18,074 nt of DNA from a virus (taxonomy: Duplodnaviria > Heunggongvirae > Uroviricota > Caudoviricetes). Under the pieces are notes generated by a model that did no database searches, was not told the DNA's origin, and was given only the letters and a program-made list of their open reading frames with translations. Location of the stretch: IMG/VR virus record IMGVR_UViG_2648501797_000004; one strand, 5' to 3'. Position numbers and translations under genes: made by a program. This document shows, one piece after another, positions 20-15,455 of the stretch (its first letter is position 1; each line of letters opens with the position of its first letter).

Positions 20-1300
20 TTAATTTTTCATTGCTTCGTTATGGGGCATGGTTGGGGCAAACTCGCTTAACTGTGTATTTAACAAAGCTACCTGTGCATT
101 ATTGTTTTCAGACATCCATTTTCCGTATACCTGAAATACCATTTGCGCATCTGCATGGCCCATCTGGTTTGCTATAAATGCCGGGTTAGCACCAGCTGTC
201 AGCGACCAGCAGGCATAAGTATGTCTCGACTGATATGATTTTCGATGGCGGAGTCCGGCACGTTTTATCGCTGCGTCCCACATCTGCCTTATTGAGTCAA
301 CGGTAAAATGGTCACCATAATTTTTTACTCTCGCTGACACTTCAGGTTGAAAAACAAAGGTGCATTTTTGTTTTTCTGTTCTGCCATACTCTCTGAGGTG
401 AACATCAATGATATGCTCTTTGCTCAGTCTCGTTAATGTCATCTGACTCCGGAGAGCGTCGATTGCTGGCTTAATAAGATGAATGACCCGATTGGTTCCC
501 GCCTGTGTTTTTGGTACCGTGAAACGGTCTTTTGCTAAATTTCTCCTGATCATCATTGTTCCATTTTTCAGATCTATGTCCTCCCATCCAAGTGCACACA
601 GCTCACCAGGGCGAACGCCAGTATAAACAGAAACACACCATAAATTTTTTGCTTGCTGATTTCTGCACGCATCGATAAGACGGATAAATTCCTCCCGCGA
701 AAGAGGATCCGGAATGGTTCTTGATTCCTTTAATGGCGAGATCCCCTTAAACGGATTATCTGCCAGGTAACCGTTATCAACACCAAACTGGAACACGGCG
801 TTAAGATTTGTCATGTAATTATTTACAGTTACAGCCGATCTCCCTGGTTGTGTAACAATATAGTTACTTTTGGGGATCTGGTATCCAGTCAGTAGCTCTT
901 TACGAACCTCCAGTAATTTTTCTTTATTAATCGATGAGGCAAGATTTTTTTCACCGATTATGCTCAGGATATTTTTGATGACGGCACGGTATGTGTTGAG
1001 TGATGTTTTGGCGACTTCAGTTTCTTTCAGTGCCAGAAATTTTTCAGCCAGTTCTTTTATGGTTAAATCTTGTCGGGCCTCACCAAATTTTTCCAGATTG
1101 CGTGAGGAGGGAAACTGTTTTGCATAGTCGAAAACACCAGTTTTTATTGCGTAACAAACAGAGGAGCGTAGTTCACCTGCAACGCGCCTGTTTTTTGCTG
1201 TGTCAGGAACCCCCAGATTTTCCCTGACTCTTACGCCTTTATAAACAAACCAGATACGTAATTTCCCTCCATGGTTTTCCACGCCTGTCGGATATTTCAT
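20..1300 (-). CDS. Tyrosine recombinase / phage integrase (lambda Int-like); ORF is open to 1315 but the ATG at 1300 (MKYPTGV...) has the better SD
   Basis: 431-aa ORF with a C-terminal catalytic region of tyrosine-recombinase type (TGVRPGEL, SRHTYACW, VFQVYGKW matching the R, H-x-x-R and Y positions) and an N-terminal arm-type domain; sits next to an excisionase-like gene. Confidence 0.85.
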   Translation of the reverse strand: MKYPTGVENHGGKLRIWFVYKGVRVRENLGVPDTAKNRRVAGELRSSVCYAIKTGVFDYAKQFPSSRNLEKFGEARQDLTIKELAEKFLALKETEVAKTSLNTYRAVIKNILSIIGEKNLASSINKEKLLEVRKELLTGYQIPKSNYIVTQPGRSAVTVNNYMTNLNAVFQFGVDNGYLADNPFKGISPLKESRTIPDPLSREEFIRLIDACRNQQAKNLWCVSVYTGVRPGELCALGWEDIDLKNGTMMIRRNLAKDRFTVPKTQAGTNRVIHLIKPAIDALRSQMTLTRLSKEHIIDVHLREYGRTEKQKCTFVFQPEVSARVKNYGDHFTVDSIRQMWDAAIKRAGLRHRKSYQSRHTYACWSLTAGANPAFIANQMGHADAQMVFQVYGKWMSENNNAQVALLNTQLSEFAPTMPHNEAMKN

Positions 1301-1334
1301 TTCAACTTCTCTCATTAGTTAGTGTGGCTTTTAG

Positions 1335-1586
1335 TCAAGTAAGATGACGTCTTGGTCTCGCTGATGCCTGGCGCTCAATCCAGCGATCAATTTCTTCCAG
1401 GTTGTAAAAGCATGGACTGTTATCCCATGGCATACCGTCATGAGCGACATGCTTATATTCCCTTCCTTCCATAAACGATTTTTCCCGGGCCTTTTTTAAC
1501 GTACCTTTTTTTATTCCTTTCAGCGCAATTAACTGCTCTTCGGATACCCATTTGCCGGGAGAGACAATCATGATTACTTCGCTCAT
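1335..1586 (-). CDS. Excisionase-like small DNA-binding protein (Xis)
   Basis: 83-aa ORF immediately upstream of int on the same strand; basic; contains a GREY motif like the lambda Xis DGREYLF region. Start codon uncertain (MSEV at 1586 or MIV at 1571). Confidence 0.55.
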   Translation of the reverse strand: MSEVIMIVSPGKWVSEEQLIALKGIKKGTLKKAREKSFMEGREYKHVAHDGMPWDNSPCFYNLEEIDRWIERQASARPRRHLT

Positions 1587-1658
1587 CGATTTCTTTATCT
1601 CTTACATCAGACGAGCGCCGGTTGCAGAATACCAGTCACAACCGGCGACAGTTGAACA

Positions 1659-4130
1659 TTAAGAATCAGCCTGACTCGGGATCAGTTTTTGCCAGATAAC
1701 TGAAACGTATTTTGCCTGGTAACGGGCGTCATCAAGTGCATTATGGCGCTCACCTTCGAATGGAATAGCCGTTCTGGCATCGAAGTCTATGGCTTTCCCC
1801 AGCTCAACGATTGTGCGTACATCGCGATCGTTGTAGTAACGCCACGGGCAGGGGATCCCCTGCCGTTCGTATGAACGGCGCAAAATCGTGTTGTCGAAGT
1901 TGGCTCCATTTCCCCAAACCTGAACAAAAAATTCACCGGAGTTTTCGTCGATAAATTCCCGCAATTGTAACAGTGCATCATCTAACGGGATTTCATCGGT
2001 CATAATGGCAGATTGCGCTTCGCGTGATTGCTTAAGCCACCATTTAATGGTGTCCCGATCAATGACTCCGCCAGCAGTTTCCAGATCGATAGTCTTACTA
2101 AATTCCGGTCCCATATCTCCGGTTTGCGGATCGAAAAATATTGCACCTATTGAGATGATCGGGGCATCAGGATTTTTTCCCATGGTTTCAAGGTCGATCA
2201 TTAGATGGTCACACGTCCTGCTGGTGGATGTGATTTCGTGATGACCGTTCACCTTAATTGGGTGATCTGCCGTCTCGCCAGTTTCATTATCGCTATTGTG
2301 ATGCTGATTGCCGCCAGTGTTCTCCTTGTGTGGATGTTCAGCGCCTTCCATTTCCTCCGGATCATCTTCCTGAACTTCAACCTGATACTCTTCATCGAAT
2401 GTTTCTTGGTATGTTGCGTCGCCCATCACCGCGCCACAATCAGGGCAGTTGCCGCCGCCGGTCTGACCGCAGGCGGTGCAGGCTTTTTCCACTTCCTGTT
2501 GCGCCACTGGTTCAGGCTGTTTCGTTTCTGGCTCGTTTTGTAACGCATTTGGACTGTTTTGTTCCGCTTTTTGGTAGTTCCGTTCCGATTCATGCTGGTT
2601 CTGGTTCACAGAATCGCGGGTCTGGATCCCCTTAACCCATTTCGGATCATTCGGGTCACTAATCCCTTCAACAAATTCACCACGTGATGCAGCAAGCAAC
2701 TTATCGGCGTCAGGCTGGCTGATATTGGCTGCCTGCATAATTTTGTTTACTTCGTCAGCGGTAACTTTTATCGGCTCTGGTTGTTCTGAATCTTCAGCGG
2801 TATCTACATTTTGCGGTAAGCCCGTGTATGTGCCATTTTTTCGGGCAAAATATTCTTCTTTTGTGATTTCAGTGGCGCCAGCAGCCAGTGCCTTATCCAG
2901 ACCAGAAAGTTTGTTTGCGCGACCGTATTTTTCTCCGTCCTTATCTGCGAAGAGGAAATAGAACGGCCCCTCACGCTCTACAGATGGTTCAGCTTCCGGC
3001 GCGGTTTCATTTTTTGGGATATCAGATACCTCAGTTTCCACTGCATCAGTTTGTGTTTCTGATGACTGGAGAACATCAACAGTGCCCAGGTCTGTTTCTT
3101 CATTCTCAAACACGCCCTTTGTCGTCAGGTATTCGCAGATATATTTGTTCAGTGCTACGGGATCTTTGTGAATGTCGATCGGACGCTCACGGACAAGGCC
3201 AAAAATAGTTTGGCGGTCGTAGCGAAGGGCATCAGGCTGTTTGCGCATTGATGCCGAGATACGCTTCCAGTCTTCGCGGTCGTTGTCGATAACTTCTTTT
3301 TTTGCCCAGCGATGGATGCTGCCGTCAATGTTTCCGGCATCCACATCACCAGGCCAGAGAGCGTAGGCCAGTTCGTCATCCAGTGTTTTCCATGTCTGCT
3401 TGTATTCGCGATGAATGGCAGCAATGACCGGGCTGATTTTTCCTGTTGAATTTTCAGTGTACTGTTGATTGGCTCTGGCGCGGGCGAGATCAACAACAGA
3501 CGTGTATTTTCCGGTTTCCTTGCGTTCACCTTCGCGACGTTTTTTCCAGATGCGCATCTCTGCCTGAATTTCGGGCCATTTAGCACCAGGAATACATTTA
3601 TGCTTAACCCACCCAATGGCGTGCAACTTAAGCTCCGGATACATGGCGTTAACTTCTGGCATTTTCATCAACGCTTCAACGATATGTCCGTCGAATGTTG
3701 CCATGTCTTCCTGCAACAATTCCTGTGCGCTAATAACCATATCAACGGTGATGTTTTCACATGTGTCGAACTTAACCATGACAGCGTTCTGTACTTCAGG
3801 GGCCAGCTTGTCAAAAGTGACGTTCATCGGATCGGATTCAGTCTCAACCGGGACAAAAGAAGCAGACTCCTCATCCCAGCGGTTTTCCTGCATATATTCA
3901 GCATCCCATGAATCGAGGGCAGGGCGGGGTATGCCAGGTTTATCCTCGCAGACAATAAATTTATAAGCGCAGTCCTGAGCAGCCGGATAATGTTCCAGGA
4001 ACTGCCAGTGAAATTTTGCTCGAGCACGGCGTTCGTCGCCAGCTTCAATGGCTGTGGCTACAGCCACAGCGCCTTCTTCCCTTGTTGCCAGTTCGTCAGG
4101 AATAGCGGCGCAAATAAAGACTTTACTCAT
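1659..4130 (-). CDS. Large modular accessory protein with C-terminal DnaQ-like DEDDh 3'-5' exonuclease domain (domain about nt 1662..2216); N-terminal ~300 aa of unknown function, acidic low-complexity linker, CxxC...CxxC zinc ribbon
   Basis: 823-aa ORF with an SD (GAGG) before the ATG at 4130. The C-terminal ~185 aa carry Exo I (MIDLETMG), Exo II (WGNGANFD) and Exo III (H-NALD-D) motifs. A CTACGQTGGGNCPDCG zinc-ribbon motif lies mid-protein, followed by a long D/E/Q-rich region. Confidence 0.75.
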   Translation of the reverse strand: MSKVFICAAIPDELATREEGAVAVATAIEAGDERRARAKFHWQFLEHYPAAQDCAYKFIVCEDKPGIPRPALDSWDAEYMQENRWDEESASFVPVETESDPMNVTFDKLAPEVQNAVMVKFDTCENITVDMVISAQELLQEDMATFDGHIVEALMKMPEVNAMYPELKLHAIGWVKHKCIPGAKWPEIQAEMRIWKKRREGERKETGKYTSVVDLARARANQQYTENSTGKISPVIAAIHREYKQTWKTLDDELAYALWPGDVDAGNIDGSIHRWAKKEVIDNDREDWKRISASMRKQPDALRYDRQTIFGLVRERPIDIHKDPVALNKYICEYLTTKGVFENEETDLGTVDVLQSSETQTDAVETEVSDIPKNETAPEAEPSVEREGPFYFLFADKDGEKYGRANKLSGLDKALAAGATEITKEEYFARKNGTYTGLPQNVDTAEDSEQPEPIKVTADEVNKIMQAANISQPDADKLLAASRGEFVEGISDPNDPKWVKGIQTRDSVNQNQHESERNYQKAEQNSPNALQNEPETKQPEPVAQQEVEKACTACGQTGGGNCPDCGAVMGDATYQETFDEEYQVEVQEDDPEEMEGAEHPHKENTGGNQHHNSDNETGETADHPIKVNGHHEITSTSRTCDHLMIDLETMGKNPDAPIISIGAIFFDPQTGDMGPEFSKTIDLETAGGVIDRDTIKWWLKQSREAQSAIMTDEIPLDDALLQLREFIDENSGEFFVQVWGNGANFDNTILRRSYERQGIPCPWRYYNDRDVRTIVELGKAIDFDARTAIPFEGERHNALDDARYQAKYVSVIWQKLIPSQADS

Positions 4131-4415: not shown

Positions 4416-4600
4416 TGTGCACATCCTTTTGGCATCAGACGTAAACGAGCCAGCATTGAAACAATGCATATTTTATTTAATAGCTCCCGTTCTTGTTTTC
4501 TCTTGTTAATGGCATCTTCAGTAAATACAGGGTTACTGATAGTGACACCAATTTCAAAACAACCTTCAGACGTATTAACGTTTGGTAATAACGTTTTCAT
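4412..4600 (-). CDS. Small hypothetical protein (62 aa), first gene of a coupled pair
   Basis: ATG at complement of 4598-4600 preceded by a GAGGA SD; its stop overlaps the start of the next ORF (ATGA). No recognisable family. Confidence 0.4.
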   Translation of the reverse strand: MKTLLPNVNTSEGCFEIGVTISNPVFTEDAINKRKQERELLNKICIVSMLARLRLMPKGCAQ

Positions 4601-4679: not shown

Positions 4680-4743
4680 GGATACACTACCTGAGGCTGT
4701 ATCGCGTCGTTCGCTGGGATTACCAGCGGAAAAAATCTGCTCG

Positions 4744-11414: not shown

Positions 11415-11664
11415 TCACCATAACTGCTAACCATTCTGACCATTTCACAAGTGACAGAGTCAATATCGTATTCTGTCACTGTCAGGCTAATACAGTACTG
11501 CAATTCAACTACAGCAATGCCTCGTATTTAGGTGAATTTACAATATCGTTCTATTCGGATACCAACTACATTTCTGAAGATAAGGCATTTATGGCTCACA
11601 TATTGGTCCCTCACGCTCGCCAGTTCTGTGCGGGGAGGGAGGGAAGGTCAAGAAACCGGGATGT

Positions 11665-11859
11665 TCATCCATCATCACTCTGGATTGATGTATATGCTCT
11701 CTTTTCTGACGTTAGTCTCCGGCGGCAGGCTTCAATGACCCAGGCTGAGAAATTCCCGGACCCTTTTTGATCAAGAGCGATGTTAATTTGTTCAATCATT
11801 TGGTTAGGAAAGCGGATGTTGCGGGTTGTTGTTCTGCGGGTTCTGTTCTTCGTTGACAT
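11665..11859 (-). CDS. Small basic DNA-binding protein, YlcI/YnfO-like (DUF3950-type, possible ribbon-helix-helix)
   Basis: 64-aa ORF with an Arg/Thr-rich N-terminus followed by IRFPNQMIEQINIALDQKGSGNFSAWVIEACRRRL; AGGG SD; located just upstream of cos, as ylcI is in DLP12. Confidence 0.55.
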   Translation of the reverse strand: MSTKNRTRRTTTRNIRFPNQMIEQINIALDQKGSGNFSAWVIEACRRRLTSEKRAYTSIQSDDG

Positions 11860-12029
11860 GAGGTTGCCCTGTATTCAGTGTCGCTGATTTGTATTGTCTG
11901 AAGTTGTTTTTACGTTAAGTTGATGCAGATCAATTAATACGATACCTGCGTCATAATTGATTATTTGACGTGGTTTGATGGCGTAGATGCACGTTGTGAC
12001 ATGTAGATGATAATTATTATCATTTTGCG

Positions 12030-12240
12030 GGTCCTTTCCGGCGATCCGACAGGTTACGGGGCGGCGACCTCGCGGGTTTTCGCTATTTATGAAAATTTTC
12101 CGGTTTAAGGCATTTCCGTTCTTCTTCGTCGTAACTTAATGTTTTTATTTAAAATACCCCCTGAAAAGAAAGGAAACGACAGGTGCTGAAAACGAGCTTT
12201 TGGGCCTCTGTCGTTTCCTTTCTCTGTTTTTGGCCGTGGA
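12030..12240 (+). other. Lambda-type cohesive end site cos (cosQ-cosN-cosB); cosN 12-nt overhang GGGCGGCGACCT at 12058..12069
   Basis: Recognised by near-identity to the lambda genome ends (...GATCCGACAGGTTACG / GGGCGGCGACCTCGCGGGTTTTCGCTATTTATGAAAATTTTCCGGTTTAAGG...), followed by the Nu1 leader. Confidence 0.8.
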
Positions 12241-12247
12241 ATGAACA

Positions 12248-12793
12248 ATGGAAGTCAACAAAAAGCAGCTGGCTGACATTTTCGGTGCGAGTATCCGTAC
12301 CATTCAGAACTGGCAGGAACAGGGAATGCCCGTTCTGCGAGGCGGTGGCAAGGGTAATGAGGTGCTTTATGACTCTGCCGCCGTTATAAGATGGTATGCC
12401 GAAAGGGATGCTGAAATTGAGAACGAAAAGCTGCGCCGGGAAGTTGAAGAACTGCGGCAGGCCAGCGAGACAGATCTCCAGCCAGGGACTATTGAGTACG
12501 AACGCCATCGACTTACGCGTGCGCAGGCCGACGCACAGGAGCTGAAAAATGCCAGAGACTCCACTGAAGTGGTGGAAACCGCATTCTGTACTTTCGTGCT
12601 GTCGCGGATCGCAGGTGAAATTGCCAGTATTCTCGACGGGATCCCCCTGTCGGTGCAGCGGCGTTTTCCGGAACTGGAAAACCGACATGTTGATTTCCTG
12701 AAACGGGATATCATCAAAGCCATGAACAAAGCAGCCGCGCTGGATGAACTGATACCGGGGTTGCTGAGTGAATATATCGAACAGTCAGGTTAA
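12248..12793 (+). CDS. nohA: Terminase small subunit Nu1
   Basis: 181-aa product near-identical (from recall) to lambda gpNu1 (MEVNKKQLADIFGASIRTIQNWQEQGMPVLRGGGKGNEVLYDSAAV...); overlaps the downstream A ORF by 26 nt as in lambda. Confidence 0.9.
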   Translation: MEVNKKQLADIFGASIRTIQNWQEQGMPVLRGGGKGNEVLYDSAAVIRWYAERDAEIENEKLRREVEELRQASETDLQPGTIEYERHRLTRAQADAQELKNARDSTEVVETAFCTFVLSRIAGEIASILDGIPLSVQRRFPELENRHVDFLKRDIIKAMNKAAALDELIPGLLSEYIEQSG

Positions 12794-14192
12794 CAGGCTG
12801 CGGCATTTTGTCCGCGCCGGGCTTCGCTCACTGTTCAGGCCGGAGCCACAGACCGCCGTTGAATGGGCGGATGCTAATTACTATCTCCCGAAAGAATCCG
12901 CATACCAGGAAGGGCGCTGGGAAACACTGCCCTTTCAGCGGGCCATCATGAATGCGATGGGCAGCGACTACATCCGTGAGGTGAATGTGGTGAAGTCTGC
13001 CCGTGTCGGTTATTCCAAAATGCTGCTGGGTGTTTATGCCTACTTCATAGAGCATAAGCAGCGCAACACCCTTATCTGGTTGCCGACGGATGGTGATGCC
13101 GAGAACTTTATGAAAACCCACGTTGAGCCGACTATTCGTGATATTCCGTCGCTGCTGGCGCTGGCCCCGTGGTATGGCAAAAAGCACCGGGATAACACGC
13201 TCACCATGAAGCGTTTCACTAATGGGCGTGGCTTCTGGTGCCTGGGCGGTAAAGCGGCAAAAAACTACCGTGAAAAGTCGGTGGATGTGGCGGGTTATGA
13301 TGAACTTGCTGCTTTTGATGATGATATTGAACAGGAAGGCTCTCCGACGTTCCTGGGTGACAAGCGTATTGAAGGCTCGGTCTGGCCAAAGTCCATCCGT
13401 GGCTCCACGCCCAAAGTGAGAGGCACCTGTCAGATTGAGCGTGCAGCCAGTGAATCCCCGCATTTTATGCGTTTTCATGTTGCCTGCCCGCACTGCGGGG
13501 AGGAGCAGTACCTTAAATTTGGCGATAAAGAGACGCCGTTTGGCCTCAAATGGACGCCGGATGATCCCTCCAGCGTGTTTTATCTCTGCGAACATAATGC
13601 CTGCGTCATCCGCCAGCAGGAGCTGGACTTCACTGATGCCCGTTATATCTGCGAAAAGACCGGGATCTGGACCCGTGATGGCATTCTCTGGTTTTCGTCA
13701 TCCGGTGAAGAGATTGAACCGCCTGACAGCGTGACCTTTCACATCTGGACGGCGTACAGCCCGTTCACCACCTGGGTGCAGATTGTCAAAGACTGGATGA
13801 AAACGAAAGGGGATACCCATAGTTTAAGTGGCAGCACGAATGCAGCTGGTAATCACAGCCATAGAGATGGCCGTCGATTTAACCCCAGTGTTTTTAAAGA
13901 TACTTATCAATATGGTTATACAAGCTCAGGTCAAAATACCTGGGGTGTACAAGGCTCAGTAGGTATGTCTACGGGGTGGTTAGCTAATACCAGTACAGAT
14001 GGTAATCATAGCCACTCACTGTCCGGCACAGCAGCATCTGCAGGTGCACACGCGCATACTGTCGGTATTGGTGCTCATACGCACTCCGTTGCGATTGGTT
14101 CACATGGACACACCATCACCGTTAACGCTGCTGGTAACGCGGAAAACACCGTCAAAAACATCGCATTTAACTATATTGTGAGGCTTGCATAA
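12768..14192 (+). pseudogene. stfQ: In-frame deletion fusion: terminase large subunit gpA N-terminal ~350 aa (12768..13817) joined to the C-terminal ~124 aa of a side tail fibre protein (13818..14192)
   Basis: Lambda gpA-like sequence runs through ...WVQIVKDWMKTKGDT, then switches abruptly to a His-rich tail-fibre C-terminus (GNHSH, HSHSLSG, HAHTVGIGAHTHSVAIGSHGHTITV ... [11 protein letters not shown]); all head and tail genes are absent. Confidence 0.8.
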
Positions 14193-14767
14193 TGGCATTC
14201 AGAATGAGTGAACAACCACGGACCATAAAAATTTATAATCTGCTGGCCGGAACTAATGAATTTATTGGTGAAGGTGATGCATATATTCCGCCTCATACAG
14301 GTCTGCCAGCAAACAGTACCGATATTGCACCGCCAGATATTCCGGCAGGCTTCGTGGCTGTTTTCAACAGTGATGAGTCATCGTGGCATCTCGTTGAAGA
14401 TCATCGGGGTAAAACGGTTTATGACGTGGCTTCCGGCGACGCGTTATTTATTTCTGAACTCGGTCCGTTACCGGAAAATGTTACCTGGTTATCGCCGGAA
14501 GGAGAGTTTCAGAAGTGGAACGGCACAGCCTGGGTGAAGGATACGGAAGCAGAAAAACTGTTCCGGATCCGGGAGGCGGAAGAAATAAAAAACAACCTGA
14601 TGCAGGTAGCCAGTGAGCATATTGCGCCGCTTCAGGATGCTGCAGATCTGGAAATTGCAACGGAGGAAGAAATCTCGTTGCTGGAAGCATGGAAAAAGTA
14701 TCGGGTATTGCTGAACCGTGTTGATACGTCAACTTCACAGGATATTGAATGGCCAGCACTGCCGTAG
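14192..14767 (+). CDS. tfaQ: Tail fibre assembly protein (Tfa)
   Basis: 191-aa ORF whose start overlaps the stop of the fibre fragment (TAATG); Tfa-like sequence and position after stf. Confidence 0.8.
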
Positions 14768-14864: not shown

Positions 14865-15455
14865 TTATATGTCAGGTGTCTGAAGTTTTGCTTTGGCTCT
14901 TAAAATGGTTTGCCGCGAGGTTTTGAATTCCCGGGCAATGGCACTTATACTTACACCTGACTTAATTCGTTCGAATACCACCTGTTTCTGTTCTTCATTT
15001 AACACAGGTGGTCGACCAAAACGTTTCCCTGCGCCGCGGGCTCTTACTATCCCGGAATGAGTGCGTTCAAGTAAAAGGTCTCGTTCAAATTCAGCGACTG
15101 CTGAAATTACTTGCATCATCATTTTTCCTGTTGGACTGGTCAGGTCAATGCCCCCCAATGCTAAGCAATGCACTCTGATACCTGTTTCGGTCAGTTGTTC
15201 CACTGTTTTCCTGATATCCATTGCATTACAACCAAGGCGATCCAGTTTTGTCACAATCAATTGATCACCACATTTCAGGCGAGCAAGCAACCGGTTAAAA
15301 CCAGGACGCTCACTGGTTGCTGCTGAGCCGCTAATGTGTTCTTCGATTATTTGCTGAGGTTTGATTTTAAAACCTGCACTTTCGATTTCCCGGCGTTGAT
15401 TTTCGGTGGTCTGATCCAGCGTTGATATCCGACAGTAAGCAAAAATTTGAGACAT
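14865..15455 (-). CDS. pinQ: Serine recombinase / DNA invertase of the Pin/Gin/Hin family
   Basis: 196-aa product with the N-terminal resolvase catalytic motif ([10 protein letters not shown]) and a C-terminal HTH ([17 protein letters not shown]). Confidence 0.9.

Follow-up and report, generated by a model that had tools for sequence, protein, structure and literature searches.

A terminase–tail-fibre chimera in a Qin-like prophage of Escherichia coli, very probably the scar of a microhomology-mediated deletion

The open reading frame (ORF) at positions 12768–14192 (+ strand) of an 18,074-nucleotide (nt) stretch of virus DNA (Caudoviricetes; IMG/VR record IMGVR_UViG_2648501797_000004), the whole of which we call the window, encodes a chimeric protein of 474 amino acids (aa) with a GTG start (RefSeq WP_025270021.1). 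Its residues 1–350 are those of gpA, the terminase large subunit of phage lambda, and the remaining 124 are the C-terminus of the side tail fibre protein Stf. The ORF is very probably a deletion scar, formed by a RecA-independent, microhomology-mediated event in a Qin-like lambdoid prophage at the rspB/ydfJ locus of Escherichia coli. An in-frame fusion of this kind had been predicted from the sequence alone, and it was confirmed by the ORF listing, in which a single 474-aa frame reads ...KDWMKTKGDT|HSLSGSTNAAGNH... across the joint, and by alignments with lambda gene A and with the stf gene of strain XJ34.

The gpA-derived segment occupies window positions 12768–13816 (+ strand) and covers the Nu1-binding N-terminus, the ATPase domain, and the first residues of the nuclease domain. 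In a megablast search of 50,697 phage records, nt 1–1049 of the ORF matched lambda A (J02459, nt 711–1759) with 98.9% identity, and gene A of phage ev099 matched the same 1049 nt with 99.9% identity. The matches were confined to these 1049 nt, and none of the records covered ≥80% of the ORF. Continuous homology to one natural protein, which the original prediction had named as its own refutation, was absent, as no phage record spanned the joint. Local BLAST comparison showed that lambda nt 1–1759 are collinear with window 12059–13816 (98.4% identity), and that window 13813–15600 matches the long stf–tfa–pin region of strain XJ34 (99.89% identity). The Stf-derived segment (13817–14192, + strand; 99.89% to the XJ34 stf 3′ end) consists of the final 124 stf codons and the stop, and encodes the His-x-His repeats of the fibre tip. 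Its assignment to the C-terminus of a side tail fibre was upheld by this alignment, by a match to the receptor-binding tip of T4 gp37, and by the tfa gene that follows it.

The two alignments overlap by 4 nt, the tetranucleotide ATAC at 13813–13816 (+ strand), which is common to both parents and places the break at 13813–13817, within 1–5 nt of the position first proposed (approximately 13817/13818). At the joint, A reads ...GGGGATAC|GGG and stf reads ...GCGCATAC|CCATAG; over a longer range, the parents are ...AAAGGGGATAC|GGGAAAAC for A and ...GGTGCGCATAC|CCATAGTTTAAG for stf, and the window itself reads ...AAAGGGGATACCCATAGTTTAAG. In lambda coordinates, the missing interval extends from nt 1760 to approximately 21,550–21,571, that is, from the rest of A to most of stf. 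This loss of approximately 19.8 kb agrees with the predicted deletion of about 20 kb of morphogenesis genes, but it need not have been a single event of that size: it may have occurred at once or as a large deletion followed by the loss of another 687 bp. Both parents are identified, the joint lies in a short sequence that they share, and it is free of recombinase sites and mobile elements, which are the features of a microhomology deletion. The DNA from A (after lambda nt 1759) to the last 124 stf codons was lost; in the mechanism that we propose, the ends were joined inside the ATAC found in both genes. As the frame was kept, translation would start at the A GTG at 12768, read 350 gpA codons and then those of the fibre tip, and end at the stf stop. 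The short overlaps suggest slippage or microhomology end joining.

In terms of domain content, the GpA_ATPase domain (PF05876) lies at aa 47–285 of the ORF (E = 8e-51), in line with the prediction that the ATPase-side N-terminal region of the terminase had been kept. The GpA_nuclease domain (PF20454, approximately 294 positions) is reduced to a 37-aa stub that aligns with profile positions 2–42 and scores 21.3 bits, under the 22.5-bit cut-off. Residues 351–641 of gpA, which contain most of the nuclease domain and the C-terminus that binds the portal protein gpB, are missing, so that the ORF has the ATPase and the Nu1-interacting N-terminus of a terminase and lacks a complete endonuclease and the portal-binding end. 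On the fibre side, the T4 gp37 tip (PDB 2XGF) matches ORF residues 344–474 (E = 4.8e-22), the aligned chain residues 126–242 including the GxHxH repeats and the terminal 13 residues. The tip is reduced to its distal half, as the break falls within the His-x-His series and cuts away the proximal side; the intact-tip sequences of strains XJ34 and TOK-001 carry additional HTHS motifs upstream of the position of this break. The tip is followed by tfa, as in members of the Stf/gp37 family, and the N-terminal tail-attachment domain and the shaft are gone. Intact Stf relatives are 676–1132 aa long and are annotated as "prophage tail fiber N-terminal domain-containing protein". The retained part of the tip at window 13997–14110 encodes G-A-H-T/A-H repeats. 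At 10 of 11 positions, the DNA of these repeats (GGTGCGCATAC, GGTGCTCATAC) agrees with the XerC arm of dif (GGTGCGCATAA), probably through a coincidence of codon usage.

Judged by this domain content, the chimera is most probably an inert by-product whose continuous frame arose by chance. According to established lambda biology, the missing part of gpA is needed for cos cutting and prohead docking. The chimera cannot act as a terminase because its nuclease domain and portal-binding C-terminus are gone, and it cannot act as a tail fibre because the attachment and shaft parts are gone and only half of the tip is left. The junctions of XJ34, WP2-S18, and K-12 at the Qin locus are out of frame for gene A, whereas those of TOK-001 and the window are in frame; the corresponding genes of TL-14 and TUM12355 are annotated as frameshifted, although the TL-14 junction itself is in frame and its frameshift is due to a separate 10-bp gap. 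Such a mixture of in-frame and out-of-frame alleles at one locus indicates that chance is sufficient to explain the frame of the window fusion.

The exact window junction was found, as an identical 120-bp sequence, in 5 of 5426 complete E. coli genomes, and this restriction to a lineage is what would be expected of a neutral scar. The exact protein occurred on 169 contigs from several sources and belonged to a cluster of 37 sequences. A sixth apparent match, CFSAN051542, was rejected because its joint is different, running from A nt 1877 to a point 8–12 nt further into stf. At least nine different junctions were found at the Qin locus, all of them with microhomologies of 2–8 bp, the usual signature of illegitimate recombination. 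The overlaps are GGGATACG in TL-14, GATA in TOK-001, TA/ATA in WP2-S18, ATA in K-12, GTT in CFSAN051542, and an imperfect TA..CC in TUM12355, and the joints of one further locus (L012) are of the GATA type. In strain KOr024, a deletion of approximately 10.8 kb joined exo directly to stf (L010 3995–4010; equivalent to window 3025–3030 joined to 13812–13817); its overlap is GATACC, and the stf ATAC(C) site is the same one as at the window junction.

Several other origins of the joint were considered. An assembly or sequencing artefact, that is, a chimeric contig, has a practically negligible probability: the identical 120-bp junction was present in five independently sequenced complete genomes, the exact protein was found on the 169 contigs, a 4-bp overlap cannot mislead an assembler, and nothing was found in favour of this explanation, which we regard as refuted. 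Insertion sequence (IS)-mediated adjacent deletion was also rejected, because no IS was found at the window junction or at any other junction looked at. One catalogued chimera joins A to IS1 (P0108/L014); it runs from A nt 1760 via TACG to an internal IS1 position rather than an IS end, and its junction was not found in the complete genomes. Site-specific recombination by PinQ or another recombinase, between an stf crossover site and a pseudo-site in A, has in its favour that pinQ lies approximately 1 kb downstream of the joint and that Pin-family enzymes recombine within tail-fibre genes (PMC12529663); the re-use of A and stf breakpoints in other alleles also superficially resembles site specificity. 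However, the e14 pix sequence CCTTCTCCCAAACCAA was absent from the whole window at ≤3 mismatches, gix-like cores of the AAACCNNGGTTT type occurred in the window at a chance rate with none near 13800–13830, and neither an AAACC-NN-GGTTT core nor an e14 pix site, as expected for a Din invertase (Pin/Gin/Hin), was present at the joint. Furthermore, the overlaps vary in length (2–8 bp) and sequence, unlike the fixed 2-bp crossover of such enzymes. A recombinase origin is therefore very improbable and largely refuted.

A two-step origin is a much stronger competitor, to which we give a probability somewhat short of even. It assumes an earlier in-frame fusion of A (nt 2268) to stf, followed by a 687-bp (229-codon) slippage between the ATAC of A (lambda nt 1756–1759) and the ATAC of stf, in which case no single 20-kb event would have taken place at 13813–13816. 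Such a fusion, A(nt 2268)::stf, encoding 703 aa in one frame, is present at the Qin locus of TOK-001 (L005); this strain matches window 12001–13816 with 99.67% identity and resumes from 13813 after exactly 687 extra bp, at whose ends the same ATAC repeat stands. Short-range slippage at short direct repeats should occur far more often than deletions of 20 kb, which favours this origin, and many alleles agree at one breakpoint and differ at the other, as serial deletion predicts. On the other hand, TOK-001 agrees less well with the window on the right flank (98.1% identity) than XJ34 does (99.9%), so that TOK-001 itself is not the parent, and a search of the 5426 complete genomes yielded no allele that was nearly identical to the window on both sides. 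A single event at ATAC yields the identical product, and the sequence gives no discrimination between the two routes. The difference between TOK-001 and XJ34 at the right flank shows that recombination has shuffled these alleles, and none of the sampled genomes is the direct parent.

Some observations fit less comfortably with a scar left by random slippage. The gpA fragment is free of inactivating changes: its protein sequence is identical to residues 1–350 of lambda gpA, with 12 synonymous and no nonsynonymous codon differences, and it is 99.9% identical to that of a living phage, ev099. This undamaged state may reflect recent acquisition or even selection. The A position is re-used in other strains, which shows that the breakpoint is non-random and that a picture of random slippage is incomplete. 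Many catalogued gpA chimeras are in frame, at least in part because clustering at 90% identity hides out-of-frame ones. A sequence scan found no convincing promoter of the chimera's own, promoter and terminator consensus matches being at chance level, and this prophage has lost the early region from which the Q homologue ydfT would be driven. A further reading, in which the chimera, or NohA together with the gpA N-terminal fragment, is a domesticated and selected protein (a decoy that poisons terminase when lambdoid phages superinfect, or a carrier presenting the fibre tip), seems improbable. In its favour, nohA is intact beside the unaltered gpA fragment, gpA fragments with the same end residue are very common in E. 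coli, and T2 adsorption is reportedly blocked by chimeric Stf proteins that cryptic prophages encode (PMC12529663). However, differences limited to synonymous sites are equally expected from the divergence of functional phages before a recent deletion, and the fragments with the same end run into unrelated partners or early stops, so that the fused part is not conserved. The rarity of the fusion (5/5426 genomes), the retention of only part of the tip domain, and the lack of a promoter in the consensus scan also argue against domestication.

The loss described here is ordinary prophage decay in a well-known cryptic prophage, and the window carries a rare allele distinct from that of K-12. Qin of K-12 (nohA b1548, stfQ b1547, tfaQ, and pinQ) occupies the same locus, rspB...ydfJ, has the same order cos–nohA–[A/stf remnant]–tfaQ–pinQ–ydfK, and has likewise lost the morphogenesis genes that separate stf from the genes for terminase. 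As a refinement of the original prediction, the alignments place the window junction apart from that of K-12 Qin, which falls within the overlap of Nu1 and A, right where A begins (lambda nt 719), and joins stf approximately 600 bp further upstream, giving a 320-aa stfQ without any gpA fragment. Deletion cannot turn either allele into the other. The two prophages also differ elsewhere: int, xis, and exo are intact in the window, whereas intQ and ydfE of K-12 Qin were destroyed by IS2 and deletion, and the dicA–relBE–hokD–flxA region of K-12 Qin is missing from the window prophage. K-12 DLP12 (nohD, the aaaD pseudogene, and tfaD) similarly has a terminase A fragment beside an intact Nu1 homologue and joined to the tail-fibre assembly region, but its A break is at lambda nt 1018, its partner is tfa (lambda nt 22119), stf is gone, and the remnant is annotated as a pseudogene. 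Homology and recombination between defective prophages and lambda have been documented (PMC3945230).

Other gpA::Stf chimeras at the Qin locus, namely, the 703-aa form of TOK-001, a common 601-aa class ("KGDT|TDANW"), and 458-aa and 517-aa forms, join the same two parents in frame, several of them at gpA aa 349–351, but differ in their stf breakpoints and microhomologies (GGGATACG, GATA). The window form keeps the least stf of the fusions compared, except for the 458-aa form, which has a Stf tail of 108 aa. With lambda itself the window shares the GTG start of gpA overlapping Nu1, the upstream cos, and the Tfa chaperone gene after the Stf C-terminus; the GxHxH repeats of the window chimera align with the T4 gp37 tip, of which only the distal half is retained. 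Another kind of cryptic-prophage chimera derived from tail fibres is represented by StfE2 and StfP2, which arise when PinQ reversibly inverts the e14 P segment at 16-bp pix sites between two stf genes (PMC12529663). The gene for PinQ adjoins the window chimera, but the latter comes from an irreversible deletion that joined an unrelated gene to stf without a pix site. Full-text literature searches found no description of the window junction or of the recurrent gene A breakpoints considered below.

The position at which gpA ends in the window chimera is shared with many other chimeras. We collected gpA N-terminal chimeras of E. coli by a protein search with the window chimera and mapped the end of gpA identity in each. 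The end fell at aa 349–352 (lambda nt 1756–1766) in 19 of the 61 distinct junctions, compared with 0.9 expected under a uniform distribution over aa 349–620; the alleles in this catalogue are not all independent, and it is biased to in-frame chimeras, as clustering at 90% merges short-tailed ones. Further repeated ends were observed at aa 389–391 (lambda nt 1877; 8 junctions), aa 489 (nt 2178; 4), aa 519 (nt 2268; 5), aa 539 (nt 2328; 2), and aa 547–551 (nt 2359; 3). The aa 349–352 site reads AAAGGGGATACGGG and corresponds to window 13808–13820 (lambda nt 1752–1763). Its instances (L004, L006, L012, L014, L015, and L047–L053; proteins P0019–P0133) have partners as diverse as the portal gene (B), the capsid gene E, the tape measure gene H, several positions in J, approximately eight positions in stf, tfa, and an internal site of insA of IS1. 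The same sites were seen at the DNA level in IMG/VR contigs, where nt 1758/1759 was joined to J17797, B3886, J16138, and stf; nt 1877 to H11846 and J17636; nt 2179 to Z; nt 2268/2271 to stf and I; and nt 2359/2362 to stf and non-lambda DNA. Three control positions showed no junction. In another IMG/VR contig (L048, 7949–7960), an otherwise intact A is frameshifted by a 7-bp deletion (CGGGAAA) located exactly at nt 1758/1759.

Breakpoints recur on the partner side as well. The stf site ...GAT|ATGCG ("D|MRGWTIKG") was joined to A at aa 349, 489, and 519 and to gene L, and the joints at A aa 451 and 506 fall approximately two codons further into stf. Each of the four GGATA pentamers in this portion of A serves as a breakpoint, and (G/C)(G/C)GAT(A/T) is the sequence at many of the partner sites; these two kinds of sequence predominate. 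Some of these events may be serial re-deletions that keep the repeat at the joint, and slippage among GGATA(C) copies would make the leftmost copy, at nt 1754, an absorbing state. We tentatively consider the window junction as one case of site-specific fragility in lambda-type terminase genes, with sites at nt 1756–1766, 1877, 2178, 2268, 2328, and 2359, a possibility that we rate a little below even. Several candidate causes of the hot spot were examined. Hairpin-driven breakage was rejected, because the hairpins at nt 1746–1780, ~2250–2270, and 2309–2329 were no more stable than shuffled controls (z from −1.4 to +0.6). IS elements and Pin sites, sought as causes of the aa 349–352 hot spot, provided no explanation, and a repeat–spacer–repeat probe for self-targeting by clustered regularly interspaced short palindromic repeats (CRISPR; type I-E, lambda nt 1743–1774) gave matches to the repeat only. 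When truncations of A were sought in the complete genomes with a probe of 601 bp, most genomes also contained an intact copy, which masks the truncated one. The flank of the hot spot had 28 matches in GTDB representative genomes, all of them intact and mostly lambda spike-in contamination of unrelated taxa. More than 20 species-representative assemblies (L018–L045), including Chromatium, Kitasatospora, Prevotella, Shewanella, Pseudomonas, Bradyrhizobium, and others, contained contigs with exact lambda gene A sequence, some of approximately 48.4–48.5 kb, which are almost certainly such contamination.

The window as a whole is nearly identical to the Qin-type prophage of strain Ecol_AZ147 at rspB/ydfJ and shares blocks of 99% identity with K-12 Qin. 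Its gene order is int, xis, exo, ydfD, dicB, a truncated ydfU, ydfT (Q), csp genes, and lysis genes, followed by gnsB, an ynfO-like gene, nohA, the chimera, tfaQ, pinQ, ydfK, and ydfJ. The rspB/ydfJ site together with cspB/F/I, essQ, rrrQ, rzpQ, gnsB, nohA, tfaQ, pinQ, and ydfK identifies it as a Qin-type prophage. Upstream of the chimera, the cos region (cosQ, cosN at ~12056–12070, and cosB; 11650–12247, + strand) is readable as ...gggtcctttccgg...acggggcggcgacctcg; lambda 48094–48502 corresponds to window 11650–12058 (95% identity), and lambda nt 1 to window 12059. As the cos region of this defective prophage is intact, with 95–98% identity to lambda, the terminase of a helper phage could in principle cut the chromosome there. 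It is followed by nohA (12248–12793, + strand), so annotated in the identical locus of strain AZ147, which encodes an intact 181-aa homologue of Nu1, the terminase small subunit (Pfam Phage_Nu1, 1–164/164, E = 4.9e-101); the chimera GTG at 12768 overlaps its end. Downstream, the tail fibre assembly gene tfaQ (14192–14767, + strand; Pfam Caudo_TAP, E = 1.3e-41) overlaps the stop of the chimera with its ATG (TAATG), as in lambda stf/tfa, and lambda nt 21824–22538 are approximately 93% identical to window 14043–14757 in this region. The serine invertase gene pinQ (14865–15455, − strand; Pfam Resolvase and HTH_7) is convergent with tfaQ, and both genes are annotated in the AZ147 locus as well.

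At the other end of the prophage, int (a 431-aa ORF), xis, and an 823-aa exonuclease gene are intact at window 20–4130. Ecol_AZ147, the closest complete genome, differs from the window in a 103-bp tandem duplication in dicB (window 4471–4573) and an IS3 in ydfJ (17914). Relative to K-12 Qin, a second deletion joint at window 4680–4686 connects the dicB-proximal region to the inside of ydfU, with the loss of approximately 5.7 kb containing the N-terminal part of ydfU, rem, hokD, relBE, flxA, dicC, dicA, ydfABC, and dicF. The parents of this joint read ...CGGATACA| and ...GTGGATGCA|, again with a microhomology, GGAT(A/G)CA.

These results bear on both annotation and the evolution of prophages. 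The RefSeq protein WP_025270021.1, named "phage terminase large subunit family protein", is really a terminase–tail-fibre chimera, of which the name gives no hint, a point of importance for annotation and for predictors of prophage completeness that rely on counts of terminase hits. The set of junctions at the Qin locus offers a natural series in which the gradual erosion of cryptic prophages can be studied. If the fragility of gene A is real, it would imply that a sequence-directed break, pause, or recombinase activity, not random slippage, shapes the decay of lambdoid prophages. If the re-use of aa 349–352 is mutational, it would represent an unrecognised sequence-specific step in the illegitimate recombination of E. 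coli and would explain the wide spread of the same truncated terminase.

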